Positions 1,830 through 45,627 of a stretch of DNA of 64,000 nucleotides are shown piece by piece (within the stretch, counting starts at the first letter, position 1; every line of letters starts with the position of its first letter). Position numbers and translations under genes: made by a program. The DNA is from Gemmatimonadota bacterium (lineage in GTDB: Bacteria > Latescibacterota > UBA2968), in assembly GCA_026706845.1 (NCBI GenBank), contig JAPOXY010000082.1:15779-79778 (forward strand), in the 5' to 3' direction. Under the pieces are notes generated by a model that saw only the letters and a program-made list of their open reading frames with translations, did not search any database and was not told the DNA's origin.

Positions 1830-2828
1830 TCACCGCTGATCAATAACCACAGGGGAACCCGATTTTGAAGACGCATAAGCTGCACAAAAGAGCTCAACAG
1901 ACTTTCGGCCCTCTTCACCCGACACCACAGGTATCGTGCCTTTGGTGATAGCAGAAACCATATCCTCTGCAATATCGGCAGGCGCATCGGGCACTTCAAA
2001 ACGGCTCAAATCTACCAATTCCTCATCCTTTGTCATCACTTCTATACCGCCGCGTTGATCCCACCGCACAGTGCCTTCCGTGCCGCTGATCTCCACCTGT
2101 GTCCCCAAATTTGGATAACTCGATGTCGTGGTCGTAATCAGCCCCCACGCGCCGCTTTGAAATGTCAACTGTGCAATTGTAATATCTTCCGTTTCAATAT
2201 CGTGTGTCATGGTTGCACTGCGCCCATAAACTTCCTTTACCGGGCCGAGCAACCAGCAGATGAGATCGACAAAATGCACACCCTGATTGGCTATCGATCC
2301 GCCCTCTGTCTCTTTGCGGCTACGCCACCCCATGGGAAAGCCCCCATTGTAATAGCTCTGCTCGCGCCACCACTTCATCTTCACATCACCCAAAAAAATC
2401 TGTCCAATGATCCCCTGATCAATGGCGGCCTTCAATTGCTGGTTTGCCTTAGAATAGCGATTCCCAAAATCCACTGCCAGAACCTTCCCCGCATCTTTTG
2501 CCGCCTGAATCGCCGCATCGCACTTTTCCACGAGAATATCCATCGGCTTGGTAACAAATGCATGTTTGCCTGCTTCTATCGCTTCAATGGCGTAATCGCA
2601 ATGCGTGCCACTGGACGTATAGATACCGATCGCATCGATATCATCACGCGCAAACATCGCCTTGTAATTCGTCGTCCAATCGCATCCATACATTTCGGCC
2701 TGCTCCACGGCCTTTTCTTCCTGTAAATCGCACACGCAAACCAGCGCACTGCCCTCTGCTGCTGCCACCTGTTTTGCTGCTCCGCGGCCACGCCCCAATC
2801 CCATAATACCAAATCTAACGCTCGACAT
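1830..2828 (-). CDS. Gfo/Idh/MocA family NAD(P)-dependent oxidoreductase
   Basis: MSSVRFGIMGLGRGRG..HCDYAIEAIEAGKHAFVTKP Rossmann N-terminus typical of the family. Start chosen at the Met that abuts the valS stop rather than the longer ORF start 2936. Confidence 0.8.
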   Translation of the reverse strand: MSSVRFGIMGLGRGRGAAKQVAAAEGSALVCVCDLQEEKAVEQAEMYGCDWTTNYKAMFARDDIDAIGIYTSSGTHCDYAIEAIEAGKHAFVTKPMDILVEKCDAAIQAAKDAGKVLAVDFGNRYSKANQQLKAAIDQGIIGQIFLGDVKMKWWREQSYYNGGFPMGWRSRKETEGGSIANQGVHFVDLICWLLGPVKEVYGRSATMTHDIETEDITIAQLTFQSGAWGLITTTTSSYPNLGTQVEISGTEGTVRWDQRGGIEVMTKDEELVDLSRFEVPDAPADIAEDMVSAITKGTIPVVSGEEGRKSVELFCAAYASSKSGSPVVIDQR

Positions 2829-2829
2829 T

Positions 2830-5535
2830 TTAATCTCCCTCTGAAAGCACCGCAAAATTTTCCCGCAACTTCGACAGTGTATCCCGATACTCGCGCTCGC
2901 GCTCGCGCTCTTTTGCCACGACCTCTGCGGGGGCATTATTCAAAAAACCCGCATTGCTCAACTTCTTCTCCAATCCGCTCAACGCCTTTTCCAATCCGCC
3001 AATCTCCTTCTCCAACCTCTGACGTTCCACAGTGAGATCTATCACGCCGGCCAAAGGCACAAAAATTTCCACATCACCAACCACAGCACTCGCAGACGCT
3101 GCCGGGCGTTCTAAAGCCGCGCCAAGGGTCAAATTTTCAACGCGCCCCAACGCCTTCATATAGCCCTTAACAGACGTCAAAATCGCACGTGCCTCCTCTG
3201 AATCCGTCTTACACACCACATCCACGAGCTTGCCCGGCGGAATACGCATTGTACCTCGAATATGGCGCACAGCACCCACCACATCCCGCATCAAAGCCAT
3301 TTCTCGCTCGGCAGCTTTATCAAATTGCGTCTTGTCGCATTTGGGCCAGGGCGCGGCAATAAGAGCCTCGCCTTCTCGTGGAAAGGTCTGCCACAACGCC
3401 TCTGAAATAAAAGGCGCAACGGGATGCAACAGGCGCAGCGTGCCTTCAAACACGACACACAAAACCGACTGCGCGGTTTGACGGGCAGTTTGATCATCGC
3501 CATACAGGCGCACTTTCGCCATCTCCACATACCAATCGCAATACGCGCTCCACACAAAATCGTACAACGCGCGCGCCGCCTCGTCAAAGCGATACGCCTC
3601 CAAAGCCTCTGTAACCTGCAACACCGTGCGATTGTACAAACTCAAAATCCACCGATCAGAAAGGTCCGTAATCGGCTCGGGGACCGTCAGCAATGCCACA
3701 TCGAGTATGTCGCGATCGTCCAGATTCATTTGTACAAACCGCGCGGCATTCCAGATCTTGTTGCAAAAATTGCGGCACATTTCCGCAATGGGCGAATCTT
3801 GCAACTTATTGTCCTTCACATCGGCATCAAACCGAATATCCTGCGAACTGCCGCATTGGTACAAAAGCGATAGGCGCGTGGCATCTGCGCCATAGCGGTC
3901 AATCAATTCGCGCGGATCAATCCCCGTACCCAACGACTTGCTCATGCGCTTGCCATCGCGCGTTTGCACCGTGGGATGAACCAGCACCGTCCGAAACGGA
4001 ATCTCGCCCACAAATTCAACAGCTGTCATAATCATCCGAATCACCCACAGATACAAAATATCCCGTCCCGTAATCATCAAATCCGTCGGATGAAACAGCT
4101 TCAAATCCTCCGTATCTTCGGGCCAACCCAGCGTTGCAAAAGGCCACAGTGCCGAGGAAAACCACGTATCGAGCACATCGGGATCTTGCGTCAACTGCTG
4201 ACTGCCACACGTTGTACACACTTCGGGAGGCTCTGCATTCACAATCACCTCGCTGCAATTTTCACACGTCCACACCGGAATGCGGTGCCCCCACCACAGT
4301 TGTCTCGAAATACACCAGTCGCGGATATTCTCCAGCCATTCAATCGAATATTCCCGAAACCGATCCGGCACATAATCGATCTTTTTTTCTCGCATCAAGG
4401 GCAAAATCAAATCGGCCAAATCGCGCATCGCCACAAACCACTGCTCCATAGGCATCGGTTCAATCACCGTGCCACAGCGGTCGTGATGCGGTACCGCGTG
4501 GGTATAATCCTCAATTTTTTCCATCAACTCCAGCTCGTCGAGTGCCTCGACCACCGCCTTGCGACACGCATAACGGTCCTGCCCGACATAAACGCCCGCA
4601 TCCTCCGTCATCTCGCCATTCAGACCAATAACCGCGATTTCGGGCAAATCGTGACGCTGCCCTATCTCGTAATCATTGGGATCGTGTCCCGGCGTCACCT
4701 TCACCGCACCGCTCCCCATTTCCGGATCGGCATAGTCATCTGCCACAATGGGAATGGGGCGATTCATAAGCGGCAACATCACCCTTTTACCCACAGCATT
4801 GCGCCATCGCGCATCGGATGGGTGCACCGCCACTCCGGTATCGCCCAGCATGGTTTCCGGACGCGTTGTCGCCACAACCACATCGGGCGCACCATCTATC
4901 CCTTTGTACCGAATATGCCACAAGTGACTATCGACCTCTCTTTCCTCCACCTCGAGGTCGGAAATCACAGTGCCACACTGCGGACACCAGTTCACCATGC
5001 GTTTGCCCCGATAGATCCAGCCCTTCTCGTAAAAACGCACAAACGTCTCCAACACCGCCCGCACATACTCCTCATCCATTGTAAATCGCTCGCGCGACCA
5101 GTCATAACTACAGCCCAACTCGCGCAACTGTCGCAAAATTGTGCTGCCGTATTTTTCTCGCCAGGCCCATATCCGTTTCAACAAATCTCTGCGCCCAATT
5201 TCTCTGCGCGTCTTTTTTTCGTTCTCCCAGATCTCCTGCTCCACCTTCATCTGCGTGCCAATACCCGCGTGATCTGTACCGGGCAAACACAGCGTGCGAA
5301 ATCCCCGCATCCGCTTGTATCGAATCACCGCGTCGTGAATCGCGTGTTGTAGCGCGTGGCCCATGTGCAACTCCCCCGTCACATTGGGTGGCGGAATCGT
5401 CACCGTATAGGCGGGACCTGTCGCGCGAAATTCCGGACGAAAATATCCCTTCCTGTACCAAAAATCATACCACGTCTTTTCAATATCTTTTGGATCGTAA
5501 GCACGCTCCAAAGCTTTATTCTTCATCGTCTCCAT
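2830..5535 (-). CDS. valS: valyl-tRNA synthetase
   Basis: 901 aa; HMGH (HIGH-type) and KMSKS motifs, PPPNVTGELHMGHA, C-terminal coiled-coil. Confidence 0.95.
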   Translation of the reverse strand: METMKNKALERAYDPKDIEKTWYDFWYRKGYFRPEFRATGPAYTVTIPPPNVTGELHMGHALQHAIHDAVIRYKRMRGFRTLCLPGTDHAGIGTQMKVEQEIWENEKKTRREIGRRDLLKRIWAWREKYGSTILRQLRELGCSYDWSRERFTMDEEYVRAVLETFVRFYEKGWIYRGKRMVNWCPQCGTVISDLEVEEREVDSHLWHIRYKGIDGAPDVVVATTRPETMLGDTGVAVHPSDARWRNAVGKRVMLPLMNRPIPIVADDYADPEMGSGAVKVTPGHDPNDYEIGQRHDLPEIAVIGLNGEMTEDAGVYVGQDRYACRKAVVEALDELELMEKIEDYTHAVPHHDRCGTVIEPMPMEQWFVAMRDLADLILPLMREKKIDYVPDRFREYSIEWLENIRDWCISRQLWWGHRIPVWTCENCSEVIVNAEPPEVCTTCGSQQLTQDPDVLDTWFSSALWPFATLGWPEDTEDLKLFHPTDLMITGRDILYLWVIRMIMTAVEFVGEIPFRTVLVHPTVQTRDGKRMSKSLGTGIDPRELIDRYGADATRLSLLYQCGSSQDIRFDADVKDNKLQDSPIAEMCRNFCNKIWNAARFVQMNLDDRDILDVALLTVPEPITDLSDRWILSLYNRTVLQVTEALEAYRFDEAARALYDFVWSAYCDWYVEMAKVRLYGDDQTARQTAQSVLCVVFEGTLRLLHPVAPFISEALWQTFPREGEALIAAPWPKCDKTQFDKAAEREMALMRDVVGAVRHIRGTMRIPPGKLVDVVCKTDSEEARAILTSVKGYMKALGRVENLTLGAALERPAASASAVVGDVEIFVPLAGVIDLTVERQRLEKEIGGLEKALSGLEKKLSNAGFLNNAPAEVVAKEREREREYRDTLSKLRENFAVLSEGD

Positions 5536-40869: not shown

Positions 40870-41757
40870 TCACGCCCGTGGATGCGCTTGTCGATAGGCT
40901 CTTTTTAACCGCTCAACACTCACATGCGTATAAACCTGCGTAGTAGAAAGACTCGCATGACCGAGCAATTCTCTCACCGCATTGAGATCTGCGCCTGCAT
41001 CCAGCAGATGGGTTGCATAAGCGTGGCGCAATGCATGGGGGGACAAAGTCCGCCCGGTCGCTTTGCCGAGATACCGGGCAACGCGACCTTGAATACCACT
41101 CGGACTCAGCGGACGCCCAGAGCGCGCCAAAAACAAATGACGTCTATCCGTCGTCTGCTCAGAAACCAGTTCCTCTCGCCGCATCAAATAAGCCACCAGT
41201 GCGACCCGGGCCGGTTCCCCAAAAGGAACCAGGCGCTCTTTGTTGCCCTTGCCTATAACCCGCACCAGTTTATCTGCCAGATCCACAGCCTCAATTTTAA
41301 GCCCCGCAAGCTCGCGCAATCGAATTCCCGCGCTATAAAACAACTCCAAAATCGCCCGATCGCGCAATCCCAACACCGTATTGGGCGACGGCAGGGACAT
41401 CGCGCGGGCAACCTCGTCAACATCCAGATAAACGGGCAATATCTTATCCTGCCTGGGCGGACGCACATCGAGTGCTGGATTCCGATCCAAATCCCCCACA
41501 TTGCACAAATAACTCAAAAACGTTCGCACCGCCGCCAGCTTTCGGGCAACAGACCGCCGACCAAATCCCCTATTGAGCAAAAATCCCAAAAAATCCCGCA
41601 CTGCGTTCCGATCAATCTGTTCCACGCGATCCACCTGACGCCCATGCAAAAAAGCGGCGAACTGCTCCAGATCCGTGTTATATGCCGCACACGTATGATC
41701 GGACAATCGCCGCTGCCGCGATAGATGGTTGAGAAATTGTGTAATGGATGTTTTCAT
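40870..41757 (-). CDS. tyrosine site-specific recombinase, XerC/XerD family
   Basis: 295 aa; ARGxxR box, HALRHAYATHLLDAGADLNAVRELLGHASLSTTQVYTHV with the catalytic Tyr. Size and motifs are Xer-like rather than phage-integrase-like. Confidence 0.85.
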   Translation of the reverse strand: MKTSITQFLNHLSRQRRLSDHTCAAYNTDLEQFAAFLHGRQVDRVEQIDRNAVRDFLGFLLNRGFGRRSVARKLAAVRTFLSYLCNVGDLDRNPALDVRPPRQDKILPVYLDVDEVARAMSLPSPNTVLGLRDRAILELFYSAGIRLRELAGLKIEAVDLADKLVRVIGKGNKERLVPFGEPARVALVAYLMRREELVSEQTTDRRHLFLARSGRPLSPSGIQGRVARYLGKATGRTLSPHALRHAYATHLLDAGADLNAVRELLGHASLSTTQVYTHVSVERLKRAYRQAHPRA

Positions 41758-41929
41758 GGCAATGTGAATTAAGTAGAGTTAAAAGCTCTCCACCCTTCTT
41801 GGACGCCCTTGCTTAAAACAAGAGCGTTATAAGTGCCAACAGTCATTACTGACATTGTTCTGCTGCCGTCATCGCGGCATGATGTTGAGCCGCAATCCAG
41901 AAGGTTTTGAGCCGCTGACTGCTTGTTTT

Positions 41930-42178
41930 CTAACTGCTGATCACTAACCGCTGCACATCAAACTGCATCTGGAGATTCAGCCAGAATAAAGGATCAACGC
42001 CGAACCAGTGCCCGAAGCGCAAAGCAGTATCGCTATCCACAGAACACTTGCCCGCGATAATCTGGCCAATGCGATATGGCGGCACATCAATCTGGCGTGC
42101 AAATGTCACTGGATATACCCCAAATTCCACCAATTCGTCTCGCAGAATCTCTCCGGGATGAACAACGCGCTTCAACAT
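41930..42178 (-). CDS. higA: HigA-family (XRE-HTH) antitoxin
   Basis: MLKRVVHPGEILRDELVEFGVYPVTFARQIDVPPYRIGQIIAGKCSVDSDTALRFGHWFGVDPLFWLNLQ is the plasmid-maintenance antidote (HigA/VapI) signature. No higB found beside it. Confidence 0.75.
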   Translation of the reverse strand: MLKRVVHPGEILRDELVEFGVYPVTFARQIDVPPYRIGQIIAGKCSVDSDTALRFGHWFGVDPLFWLNLQMQFDVQRLVISS

Positions 42179-42291
42179 GGCTCAGATCCTCGCGTTTTTA
42201 GTGATAATCTACAACCTCGACATCGGTTGGTCTGGGACTATCGGATCAGGTAAAGCATAGTTAGGGGATCATCTATTCTCATTCTTATTTT

Positions 42292-42378
42292 TTAATGGAC
42301 CGCCGACCATCCATGGCACTTCAGAACAGGCACCCAATCAGGTGACAGATTCATGTCAATCAGAAGCTTCACACTCAT
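42292..42378 (-). pseudogene. truncated DUF5615 (Mut7-C/PIN-like toxin) remnant, 28 codons
   Basis: ATG overlaps the DUF433 stop (ATGA). Translation MSVKLLIDMNLSPDWVPVLKCHGWSAVH then a stop; matches the conserved DUF5615 N-terminus (M.LLLD.NLSP..V..L...GHDAVHV). Only ~110 bp remain before higA. Confidence 0.55.
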
Positions 42379-42605
42379 GGAGTGACCAGTGCAACTTCCC
42401 GTTCTTCGACCCGCCAGGCTGCATAGGCCAGAGCTTGATCGATATCTTCACGCTCGAGATAAGGATAGGCTTTCAGAATTTCCTCGTGTGATCGACCAAC
42501 TGCCAAGAGCCCCACAACAGTTCCAACCGTCACCCGCATTCCCCGAATACATGCCTTACCGCCCATGACCGCGGGATCGAAAGTAATTCTCGCGAATTTT
42601 TCCAC
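42375..42605 (-). CDS. DUF433 domain protein (antitoxin partner of DUF5615)
   Basis: GTG start behind AAGGAG RBS; FDPAVMGGKACIRGMRVTVGTVVGLLAVGRSHEEILKAYPYLEREDIDQALAYAA is the DUF433 signature. Confidence 0.75.
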   Translation of the reverse strand: MEKFARITFDPAVMGGKACIRGMRVTVGTVVGLLAVGRSHEEILKAYPYLEREDIDQALAYAAWRVEEREVALVTP

Positions 42606-42665
42606 GCGCTATCTCCTTCTATATCCGTAAGGACAGTAACTTTCATTGTTGACAAAACCATAACA

Positions 42666-42947
42666 TCATAATATGCCCGATTTTCGCACGGCTTGAATTT
42701 CGCGGTTTATCTCTTCCAAATCCATCTTATCAAGACCTTTTTCAACCGATTGCTTTTGAAGTTCATCAACGGCTTGAATCGCACGCACACGACGGAAAGC
42801 CGCCAGGGTTTCTTCCCAATCGGCATCGGAAACAGATGACAAAATGGCGATAGGTTTTCCCTGAGCCGTAATCACCATTTCTCGCTCATCAGCCAACTGC
42901 TCCCAAATTTCGGATGGTCGCAGATCTCTTATTTGAATAAAACGCAT
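42666..42947 (-). CDS. Phd/YefM-like antitoxin-fold protein
   Basis: MRFIQIRDLRPSEIWEQLADEREMVITAQGKPIAILSSVSDADWEE follows the Phd/YefM N-terminal pattern; acidic helical C-terminus. Confidence 0.55.
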   Translation of the reverse strand: MRFIQIRDLRPSEIWEQLADEREMVITAQGKPIAILSSVSDADWEETLAAFRRVRAIQAVDELQKQSVEKGLDKMDLEEINREIQAVRKSGIL

Positions 42948-42978
42948 TGTGGAATCTCCTACTGCCTTTCAAAACCTT

Positions 42979-43034
42979 CTGGATTGCGGCTTAAACCATG
43001 CCGCAATGACGGGCGAGGCCTGCCTCGCCCCTAC
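42979..43034 (-). terminator. two adjacent stem-loops downstream of topA (possible terminator/insulator)
   Basis: ATTGCGGCttaaaccatGCCGCAAT (8-bp stem) and GACGGGCGAGGcctgCCTCGCCCCT (10-bp stem, one mismatch); only a weak T-run. Confidence 0.4.
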
Positions 43035-43092
43035 GGTTGTTCATCCTTCTTGTATCTTGAGACGGGCAACCACAAGGGATTGCCCCTACATC

Positions 43093-45537
43093 TCACTTCC
43101 TACTTCTTCTTCTCGACCTTCTCCTATTCGTCGCCGGATTTTCCGCAATAATTTTTTTGCAAGCCGCCTGTGTCAAAGACGACGCCTCCACGCCCTTTGG
43201 AATGCGGTAATTATTACCATTGTGTTTGATATAAGGACCGTAGCGCCCGGCGAGAACCTGAATCCCGTCAAAATCGTGAATCACCTGTTGCGACTGCCTG
43301 CCGCCCGCTCCGCCCTGCATAAATTTTTCGAGCGTCTCGCGGTCTAATGTCGCCGCATCCGTCCCTCTGGGAATCCTGTAATTCTTGCCATCTTTGCGAA
43401 TATAAGGACCATACCGCCCATTGAGCACCTGGAAATCGCCAAAATCGCGAATCACATTTTTGGCTTTGCGATCTTCCTCGGCAGCCGCGATCTCCAACGC
43501 GCGATCCAGCGTCACCCCAAACAGATCCTCTCCCTCTGGCAGGGAGAAAAAGTTGCGACCTATTCGCACATAGGGACCATACCGGCCAGTATTGACCTGC
43601 ACCTCATCACCCGCATCATTTTGCCCGAGTTTGCGGGGCAATTCAAAACACTTGAGAGCATCGGCCAATTCAATATCAAAAATACTCTGATTGGGAGGCA
43701 AAGATGCAAACAGAGGCTTTTCCTCTTCACCTGCACCACCAACTTGAACATAGGGACCGTAATTGCCAAAACTCACACTCACCTCGCGCCCCGTATTGGG
43801 ATCTTTGCCCAACTTGCGCCCAATTTTACCAACTGACTTCTTGTCTTCCACCCGCTTATTAAACGGCGGATAAAAAGCCTCCAACATCGCCTTCCACGAA
43901 TTTTTCCCCTGTGCAATCTCGTCAAAATCGTCTTCGAGATGCGATGTAAAACGCAAATCGACAATATCGGGAAAATGCGCCATCAAAAAATCGTTCACCA
44001 CCTCGCCGATATCTGTGGGTTTGAGCTTCTTATCTCGCGTGCGTTCCACATACTCCCGGCTCTGAATCGTCGAAATCGTCGGTGAATAAGTCGAGGGACG
44101 CCCAATACCCTCGCCCTCGAGCTTCTTCACCAGCGAAGCCTCTGTATAACGCGCGGGCGGCCTGGTAAACAACTGCTCCAAATGCAACTTCTCCAAATTG
44201 AGCACCTGTCCCTTTATAACCCTGGGCAAAATCACATCTTTATCACTGATATTGGCCTCTGGATCATCTGACCCCTCGGCATAAACCCTCAAAAATCCAG
44301 GGAATAAAACGCGCTGCCCCTTTGCCTCAAAAATCAATTCACCCGCTTCACCTGCCCGAATGCGAATCGTCGTATATGCAATACGCGCATCGGCCATCTG
44401 CGTCGCCAACGTGCGCTTCCAGATCAAATCGTAAAGCCGAAATTGTCGGGGATCGAGATGGGTCCTGACGCTATTGGGTTTAATCGACAAATCCGCCGGA
44501 CGAATTGCCTCGTGCGCTTCTTGCGCCCCCCTGGTTCTATTGGCAAATCGGCGGGGCTTTTCCACGGTGTAATCCCGGCCAAACTCCTGAGCAATCACCT
44601 CCCGCGCCTGATTCACCGCCTGCTCGGCCAAACTCACCGAATCGGTACGCATATACGTAATCAAACCGCCGGTATATCCGGGAATTTCAAAATTGCCCTC
44701 GTAAAGCTGTTGTGCAACCCGCATCGTCTGCGACACGGAAAAACTTAGTTTGCGAGACGCCTCTTGTTGCAGCGTCGATGTCGTAAACGGAGGCACGGGC
44801 CGCCGCACACCCTCGCGCTCGACCACCTCTGCCACGACAAATTGCCCCTTCAGCGCGCTCGCTTCAATAGCTCTGGCCTCGGCTTCATTTTTCACAGACG
44901 CTTTTTTCCCATTCTGCCGCGTCAATTCAGCCTGAAATTTGGGATCCTTAAAATCGGATTTAATTCTCCAATATTCCTCTGGCTTAAACGCCCGAATTTC
45001 CCGCTCCCGATCAACGATAATCCGCACCGCCACACTCTGCACGCGTCCGGCTGACAATCCCCCCTTTACCTTTCGCCACAACAAAGGCGACAACTCATAT
45101 CCCACAGCGCGGTCCAAAATGCGACGCGCCTGTTGTGCATCCACCAAATTTTGATCCAGTTCGCGCGGATTTTCAAGCGCGTGCAAAACCGCAGACCGGG
45201 TAATCTCGTGAAACACAATCCGCTTAATGGGCTGATTCTTAAGCCCCAGCGCGAAAATCAGATGCCACGAAATAGATTCTCCTTCGCGGTCTTCATCCGT
45301 CGCCAAATATACAGTCGTATCTTTTTTAATATCCTTCTTCAGTGCCTGAATCACACTGCGCTTGTCTTGTGACACCACGTATTTGGGATCAAAACTTTCC
45401 ACATCAAAGCCCAATTCGCGTGCGGGAAGATCGCGCACATGCCCCATAGAAGCAGCGACTTTGTAGTCCTTGCCCACAAATCGAGAAATTGTGCGTGCCT
45501 TAGCAGGTGATTCGACAATAATCAAATTTTTTGCCAT
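43093..45537 (-). CDS. topA: DNA topoisomerase I
   Basis: MAKNLIIVESPAKARTISRFVGKDYKVAASMGHVRDLP Toprim N-terminus; catalytic core. C-terminus has three GRYGPY-type repeat modules. Confidence 0.95.
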   Translation of the reverse strand: MAKNLIIVESPAKARTISRFVGKDYKVAASMGHVRDLPARELGFDVESFDPKYVVSQDKRSVIQALKKDIKKDTTVYLATDEDREGESISWHLIFALGLKNQPIKRIVFHEITRSAVLHALENPRELDQNLVDAQQARRILDRAVGYELSPLLWRKVKGGLSAGRVQSVAVRIIVDREREIRAFKPEEYWRIKSDFKDPKFQAELTRQNGKKASVKNEAEARAIEASALKGQFVVAEVVEREGVRRPVPPFTTSTLQQEASRKLSFSVSQTMRVAQQLYEGNFEIPGYTGGLITYMRTDSVSLAEQAVNQAREVIAQEFGRDYTVEKPRRFANRTRGAQEAHEAIRPADLSIKPNSVRTHLDPRQFRLYDLIWKRTLATQMADARIAYTTIRIRAGEAGELIFEAKGQRVLFPGFLRVYAEGSDDPEANISDKDVILPRVIKGQVLNLEKLHLEQLFTRPPARYTEASLVKKLEGEGIGRPSTYSPTISTIQSREYVERTRDKKLKPTDIGEVVNDFLMAHFPDIVDLRFTSHLEDDFDEIAQGKNSWKAMLEAFYPPFNKRVEDKKSVGKIGRKLGKDPNTGREVSVSFGNYGPYVQVGGAGEEEKPLFASLPPNQSIFDIELADALKCFELPRKLGQNDAGDEVQVNTGRYGPYVRIGRNFFSLPEGEDLFGVTLDRALEIAAAEEDRKAKNVIRDFGDFQVLNGRYGPYIRKDGKNYRIPRGTDAATLDRETLEKFMQGGAGGRQSQQVIHDFDGIQVLAGRYGPYIKHNGNNYRIPKGVEASSLTQAACKKIIAENPATNRRRSRRRSRK

Positions 45538-45627
45538 CAAAACATCCTTTATCATTCAGGGTAGGGGCGACGCTCCTGTATTCGCCCATTACAATCCAGA
45601 AAAAAATACGCGCACCAATTACAAAAG

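Follow-up and report, generated by a model that had tools for sequence, protein, structure and literature searches.

An intact DUF433 antitoxin gene followed by a 28-codon remnant of a DUF5615 toxin gene in the variable topA-xerC interval of a Gemmatimonadota bacterium

The association of PIN-domain toxins with COG2442 (DUF433) proteins was predicted as a toxin-antitoxin (TA) pair (PMC2701414) and has been validated experimentally for vapBC10 of Synechocystis, in which VapB10 neutralises VapC10 and both binds and activates its own promoter (PMC3834315). The COG4634 proteins have Mut7-C-like reduced PIN domains and are putative toxins (PMC5499597). Orphan antitoxins are abundant, as a Klebsiella survey indicated, and have been read as decay products, as anti-addiction genes or as regulators (PMC7192599); the cross-interactions of TA systems have also been reviewed (PMC7354431). 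The locus that we describe here resembles vapBC10 in having a DUF433 gene first, with a translationally coupled PIN-like toxin gene downstream of it, and its intact relatives match this arrangement. However, the toxin is only 28 codons long, DUF5615 is not a canonical PIN, and no autoregulated promoter is evident. Like the orphan or anti-addiction antitoxins (PMC7192599, PMC7354431) it has an intact antitoxin beside a degraded toxin in the original context, with close paired copies in relatives. The difference from the Klebsiella cases is that here the path of decay is resolved to the base, six breakpoints are found in relatives and three families have been orphaned side by side. Our preferred reading, to which we give a probability of about 0.85, is that this was a VapBC-like DUF433/DUF5615 type II TA module that lost its toxin gene when illegitimate deletion took place between short direct repeats. 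As such, the locus is a clear but ordinary and well-documented instance of the known decay of TA modules.

The block lies in a 64-kb window (the whole stretch of DNA analysed) between topA (45555-43093) and the gene of a XerC-type recombinase of 295 aa (41757-40870), with the genes all on the minus strand. Its features are the following:

42969-43010, minus strand: hairpin repeat on the topA side, GTCATTGCGGC-loop-GCCGCAATCCAGAAGGTTTTGA, with a stem that covaries across loci
42947-42666, minus strand: orphan gene of a Phd/YefM-family antitoxin, 93 aa
42605-42375, minus strand: intact DUF433 antitoxin gene (COG2442, VapB-type), 76 aa, GTG start
42378-42375, minus strand: ATGA overlap between the DUF433 stop and the start of the toxin ORF, read directly; all intact relatives have the 4-nt overlap
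42378-42292, minus strand: DUF5615 (Mut7-C-like PIN) toxin pseudogene, codons 1-28 and a fortuitous TAA stop
42294-42298, minus strand: deletion junction with CCATT microhomology, DUF5615 codons 28-29 and end of the M48 peptidase gene
42285-42296, minus strand: remnant of the M48/PDZ peptidase gene, last four codons (ATT AAA AAA TAA, i.e., IKK and stop)
42260-42198, minus strand: higB pseudogene, last 20 codons and stop, with TGG changed to TGA at 42248-42246
42178-41930, minus strand: orphan higA antitoxin gene, 82 aa, native C-terminal tail replaced
41868-41910, plus strand: inverted copy of the hairpin on the xerC side, with arms of 26 nt that are 96% complementary

A preliminary description of this stretch had reported an intact DUF433 antitoxin gene joined to the next frame by an ATGA overlap at 42378-42375 of the minus strand, and both are present as it said. 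The full ORF is preceded by AGGAG 8 nt 5' of the GTG (read from the minus strand), and in the Pfam search that the description had proposed, the 76-aa product matched PF04255 over the whole domain (profile positions 1-56 of 56, E=3e-25), its 88.2 bits exceeding the cut-off of 23.6. Homologues are numerous over the range of 89-99% identity, many of them 76 aa long and 95-99% identical. The sole change specific to the window is A36V; valine is found in 8 of 101 homologues and the change appears to be a tolerated variant. The exact proteins of the block were found solely in the source sample, whose two assemblies do not differ over 1451 nt (100% identity). The source MAG is labelled Gemmatimonadota at NCBI, and closely related closed genomes are labelled Latescibacterota. 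The block carries three antitoxin genes (Phd/YefM, DUF433 and HigA) on one strand and zero toxin genes, an antitoxin-only array because higB too is a 20-codon remnant and the Phd/YefM gene is also without a toxin. No intact DUF5615 gene, nor any other copy of the lost toxins, was detected by tblastn within the 64-kb window.

A conserved autoregulated promoter is not evident, because only 13-27 nt of upstream sequence are common to the DUF433 module across contexts. Scanning the block for sigma-70 promoters and intrinsic terminators gave nothing above chance, the sigma-70 type being possibly not that of the host, and an Rfam search of 41700-43200 gave no match. Transcription of DUF433 probably continues from upstream, together with the Phd-like gene and higA, its neighbours on the same strand. 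One could think that DUF433, a winged-helix DNA binder, has been domesticated and is kept as a toxin-independent transcription factor for near or distant genes, given that DNA binding and activation of its own operon are known from VapB10, a COG2442 protein (PMC3834315), and that a regulatory fate of orphan antitoxins has been mentioned as possible (PMC7192599). We consider this quite improbable, as no operator or promoter is conserved upstream beyond that short shared stretch, the neighbours vary between relatives and no target is identifiable.

The ORF coupled to DUF433 reads MSVKLLIDMNLSPDWVPVLKCHGWSAVH and ends at the TAA at 42294-42292, in agreement with the 28-codon frame of the earlier account, which had recognised in it the N-terminus of a DUF5615 protein and had suggested a profile search of the peptide, its alignment to full-length DUF5615 proteins and a search of related genomes for an intact partner, guessed at some 110 aa. 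The sole Pfam match of the 28-mer was PF18480 (DUF5615), over positions 2-26 of the 110 of the profile (E=0.0042). Its 17.4 bits fall below the gathering score of 23.8 bits, as one would expect with only a quarter of the domain present, and a full-length orthologue reaches 86.6 bits. We take DUF5615/PF18480 to be equivalent to the COG4634-type Mut7-C-like reduced PIN of the literature.

Direct comparison with relatives supports the identity of the stub far more strongly than the profile match. The intact partner was indeed found, with the same ATGA coupling and a length of 122 aa (PF18480, E=1.3e-24, positions 2-109 of 110), and the 28-mer corresponds to its residues 1-28 with 93% identity (tblastn, E=5e-14), 26 of the 28 residues being identical to the toxins of the loci L187 and L010. 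At the DNA level the stub is 92-94% identical to the intact loci, the identity ends exactly at 42294, and the alignment covers nt 1-85 of the 369-nt L187 toxin gene and none further. The 28-codon ORF is on these grounds the true N-terminus of a DUF5615 toxin; codons 29-122 are missing with respect to L187, which bears out the earlier view of an intact antitoxin with a mostly deleted toxin. The later active-site residues of the complete ~110-residue domain are not included, and the stub, which spans profile positions 2-26 of 110 and so roughly one quarter of the PIN-like domain, is predicted to be unable to act as a nuclease. With the toxin cut to 28 codons, the locus does not have the two intact ORFs of a functional type II TA module.

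The comparison with L187, a locus in synteny with ours from a closed relative of 5.33 Mb, delimits what is missing. There the order is BatA-topA-DUF433-DUF5615-144 aa-M48/PDZ peptidase (406 aa)-higA. Window positions 42618-42294 correspond to L187 2988-3312 and positions 42298-42265 to L187 5417-5450, so the alignments overlap by 5 nt, the pentamer CCATT; toxin codons 28-29 contain it (GTC CAT T), as do the penultimate codons of the peptidase gene (...CCA ACC ATT AAG AAG TAA). The ~2.1 kb that separate the two repeats in L187 are absent from the window, where GGTCCATT is followed at the junction by AAAAAATAAG. This removed DUF5615 codons 29-122, the 144-aa gene and the M48/PDZ peptidase gene save for IKK and its stop, which align to the 3' end of the 406-aa gene (...KVFPTIKK and stop) in L187, L005 and L006. 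The TAA that closes the stub was produced by the junction. As to the ~110 bp that the preliminary description had noted before higA, the distance was right (113 nt from the stub), but it is not an empty spacer, since it holds the peptidase codons and the higB remnant. In the mechanism that we favour, the ~2.1 kb would have been lost between the two CCATT pentamers. Toxin codons 1-28 have been left with a fortuitous stop, and the peptidase has kept its final four codons; the DUF433 ORF, its RBS and the ATGA of translational coupling are untouched.

The source being a metagenome assembly, and the 28-mer alone scoring under the Pfam gathering threshold, one might suspect a chimeric assembly junction, or take the 28-codon ORF for an unrelated or independent small gene. 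Both are hardly credible. The junction is identical in the two assemblies of the source sample and in L190, a locus from a different metagenome that has the same 28-aa stub; L190 has other genes upstream (SLFN/AlbA_2, HATPase_c_4) and a DUF433 with 2 changed residues. Because it is identical in an independent sample, the junction is no assembly artefact but real and heritable. The high DNA identity of the stub to intact genes, which extends precisely as far as the breakpoint, also argues against an artefact, and the variable length of the stub among relatives (11, 28, 29, 32 and 72 aa) against a conserved small protein. One further locus, L008 (TARA sample, 97% identical), keeps toxin nt 1-92 and 350-369, a spacer of ~75 nt and the last ~10 peptidase codons, and could have arisen independently or represent an intermediate. 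Both a single deletion and nested steps, perhaps by way of a state such as that of L008, could account for the loss of the toxin.

Among the close relatives, DUF433 is followed by an intact 122-aa partner with the same 4-nt overlap in L010-13, L015, L187, L188, L189 and L193 (overlaps at 4228/4231 and 3228/3231). In a broader sample of more distant DUF433 homologues (68-88% aa identity), a full-length DUF5615 lies directly downstream in 58 of the 68 informative loci. Pairing is the ancestral norm, and the state found in the window is therefore derived by deletion. The position of DUF433 immediately upstream of a PIN-like toxin gene is seen here through the remnant and in the relatives through their intact partners. 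We aligned every locus to the intact L187 toxin gene and found, among loci 92-97% identical in DNA, six distinct breakpoints that inactivate DUF5615, all of them with the full 76-aa DUF433. The nucleotides of DUF5615 that are kept in each class are:

Window and L190: 1-85
L005/6/7/9 and L194: 1-77
L008: 1-92 and 350-369
L014: 1-23 and 295-367
L016-18: 1-24
L191/192: 1-23

Three of these independent deletion classes (L014, L016-18 and L191/192) have a common left breakpoint, between ...CTGATCGA and T..., inside an ATCGAT palindrome (DUF5615 nt 23-24), which may reflect a deletion hotspot or chance. L186 is devoid of any DUF433 module in the topA-xerC interval.

No locus with an intact toxin and a broken antitoxin was found among those compared. 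A viability filter predicts this asymmetry of dead toxins and live antitoxins, given the lethality of losing the antitoxin first. In our reading the loss of the toxin first would be the sole viable order, as loss of the antitoxin first would kill and loss of both would leave no trace. The asymmetry does not by itself prove selection on the antitoxin.

In a related closed genome we found a second paired DUF433-DUF5615 copy (88% identity in the toxin, 90% in the antitoxin), so targets for cross-neutralisation do exist in the lineage. L188 has in addition a third, distantly related DUF433 gene (2587-2811, minus strand, 74 aa) in divergent orientation, which adjoins its second paired module. An ORF of 135 aa, membrane-like, follows it, and the two are possibly another non-canonical DUF433 pairing.

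The other two antitoxin genes of the block have also been left alone. The HigA product is a clear member of the HigBA module family (PF05015/TIGR02607), with a match to TIGR02607 (E=5e-19) of 67.8 bits against a cut-off of 47.7, and the 3' end of higB precedes higA at the canonical 21-nt spacing. However, instead of an intact HigB (PF05015) of ~93 aa upstream of higA, the window keeps 20 codons of it with an in-frame TGA, and the tail of higA has been replaced. L021 has an intact HigB of 93 aa, which itself matches PF05015 with E=7.8e-12, and by tblastn the remnant corresponds to its residues 74-93 (75% identity, E=3e-7). The HigB fragments of 20-29 aa gave no match in Pfam and NCBIfam because they are too short. 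Two further candidates were discarded as HigB remnants by alignment to L187 and L005-7: RMRIDD is spacer past the stop of the M48 peptidase, and ATGATAAAAAGC (MIKS) of L008 is spacer past DUF5615. The 5' breakpoint of higB is common to the window, L005, L006, L008 and L190, so the truncation of higB is the older event; L187 is without even this remnant. Over the 84 loci of the HigA family, a full HigB accompanies HigA in 42, remnants in 11 and none in 31.

The window HigA ends in ...FDVQRLVISS (3' end at 41930-41955), and comparison with L190, L005 and L021 showed that it departs in its last 8 codons from the form of 96 aa that stands beside an intact HigB. These codons and the sequence downstream are DNA associated with the hairpin and have taken the place of the native tail of 22 codons (...FDLVVADQQVGAAV...). 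The two C-terminal forms, of 82 and 96 aa, are spread independently of the deletion classes, both being found in classes A and B, and therefore indicate mosaic recombination.

The Phd-like protein matched PF02604 with E=1e-4 and 22.5 bits, below the gathering score of 29.8, and NCBI names its close relatives Phd/YefM. PF02604 is present in the homologues at 55-72% identity, whose genes overlap by 4 nt with that of a PIN_3 toxin of 138-145 aa downstream (L179-L185). In the window block no PIN_3 gene or remnant gave a tblastn match at E<=1. The peptide MKVTVL after the Phd-like gene, which might recall the PIN_3 start MKIVLDTNV, was dropped as a stub for want of tblastn support. The close relatives of the protein (84-94% identity, homologues P0121-P0156) have no recorded match to PF02604 and are never beside PIN_3, which suggests a long-lived lineage of orphan Phd-like antitoxins that may have drifted from the family profile. 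We propose that the same process, acting in the topA-xerC interval, would have left Phd/YefM, DUF433 and HigA without their toxins.

This interval (window 40870-45555) is 1.3 kb here and ~16 kb in OZ241986. We compared it in L005-7, L015/L024, L186, L187 and L189-L194 and found that its contents vary, with SLFN/AlbA_2-HATPase_c_4 genes, decaying TA modules, the M48/PDZ peptidase, coiled-coil ORFs and IS transposases. By its gene content it is a hypervariable hotspot of gene shuffling. An integron-like cassette array, suggested by the adjoining tyrosine recombinase, was set aside as an explanation, since the 295-aa neighbour is of ordinary XerC/D size, two-domain, and co-oriented downstream, and the junctions have short microhomology with no shared att-like site.

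The antitoxin block is bracketed by the pair of hairpins, which are separated by 1058 nt; 0 such matches would be expected by chance. The element consists of GTCAT, an 8-bp stem, a loop, the complementary stem and CCAG(AAGGTTTTGA), between the flanks CGTCAT...ATCCAG; this architecture, with a covarying stem, was also found in L006, L008, L011, L015, L016, L019, L048, L120, L124, L186 and L188. In L187 and L005-7 the topA-side hairpin is broken in the loop and fused to the DUF433 RBS. A similar element is the NTS/dRS3 repeat of Neisseria, which is the substrate of the ssDNA nuclease SsnA (PMC11893778). The window hairpins share with NTS/dRS3 and the Ssn-related motif (SRM) the same non-palindromic flanks and a covarying stem (PMC11893778), and in both cases the hairpins adjoin genes of variable content. 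They differ from the degenerate SRM pattern in the composition of the stem and by a loop of 9-10 nt, and the 64 kb contain no more than two copies. The SRM pattern HGTCWYN(0-2)YYVSBRHN(0-5)WNVSBRGN(0-2)RNCYNB had 0 matches in the window, and the L048 and L124 copies match it. A motif scan of the ORFs of the 64-kb window detected no convincing GIY-YIG (SsnA-like) gene. Directly upstream of the repeat element, just 3' of topA, there is also a GC-rich perfect hairpin, GGGGCGAGGCAGGCCTCGCCC (43022-43042, minus strand), without a T-run, conserved after topA in L005, L006, L015, L016 and L187, which is probably the topA terminator.

It is from this background that one has to judge whether the orphan DUF433 is maintained by selection. 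A first dN/dS table, with Nd=0 within groups, was discarded as an artefact of ascertainment, the loci having been retrieved by exact protein identity; the comparisons given here used junction-sharing loci from different protein clusters. The pN/pS of DUF433 was 0.14 (P=0.016) between the window and L190, which share the junction, and 0.03-0.08 between L194 and L005/6, which share theirs. However, the dead stub gave 0.18, and the higB pseudogene 0.19-0.87 vs 0.11-0.26 for higA, a difference that when pooled has a Fisher p of ~0.03 on non-independent pairs. The selection tests are confounded because dead fragments (the stub and the higB pseudogene) show low pN/pS too; the low signal may be inherited or imported by recombination. 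Between window and L190 the divergence was 3.1% for DUF433, 9.2% (~3x) for the stub and 10% for higA.

These figures bear on two readings of what the antitoxin is now; the preliminary description had likewise offered a module in the course of decay, or an antitoxin kept for anti-addiction or regulation. According to the first, DUF433, the Phd-like protein and HigA have been kept as anti-addiction or immunity genes that neutralise toxins of paralogues or of incoming mobile elements and render the host immune to addiction by these or to abortive effects, a concept treated in previous work (PMC7192599, PMC7354431). It would account for the intact antitoxin ORF in all six deletion classes, for the three consecutive toxin-less antitoxins on one strand and for the threefold slower divergence of DUF433 than of the stub between the window and L190. 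Likewise, higA is intact across a pS of ~0.25-0.31 after the shared truncation of higB, and the 20-codon higB pseudogene has, unlike higA, gained two independent stop codons. Additional paired copies, 88-90% identical, are present in a related genome, and both families are widely distributed, with high identity even between MAGs whose labels name different phyla. The internal controls with likewise low pN/pS, the weakness of the pooled difference between the higB pseudogene and higA, the mosaic patterns indicative of recombination and the fact that survivorship alone accounts for seeing only antitoxin-retaining states all count against it, and we hold this reading only tentatively. That the orphan antitoxin is retained under selection is plausible but unproven, and its likeliest function, if it has any, would plausibly be to neutralise close DUF5615 toxins of paralogous or incoming modules.

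According to the second reading the decay is purely transitional, and DUF433 has no role and has merely not yet been disabled on its way to full loss. We see this as a real possibility, somewhat short of an even chance. The window DUF433 differs from those of its nearest relatives by 2-7 nt, so the deletion may be recent; L186 has no DUF433 and L187 has lost even the higB remnant; and many deletions whittle the interval, where even the C-terminus of higA has been replaced. However, two diverged lineages that share the junction (9% in the stub, 10% in higA) both keep a full-length DUF433, and the orphan higA has lasted much longer.

A bolder proposal is that the block is a selected, antitoxin-only immunity island of three families in a recombination hotspot between topA and xerC, bounded by hairpins, which we regard as unlikely. 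If it were true, the host would be shielded against addiction by the highly identical TA modules in circulation in its community, and against their abortive effects, and the six recurrent toxin deletions would reflect selection for loss of the toxin together with retention of the antitoxin. On our preferred reading of a module inactivated by deletion, the locus and its relatives provide a natural series of the death of a type II TA module resolved to the base, from intact pairs through six deletions, several of whose junctions show short microhomology, to complete loss in one syntenic hotspot. Such a series can calibrate the annotation of TA systems, in which a stub or an orphan antitoxin is readily mistaken for a functional module. 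It leaves the current understanding of TA systems unchanged and supplies concrete pairs of antitoxin and toxin for the anti-addiction hypothesis.
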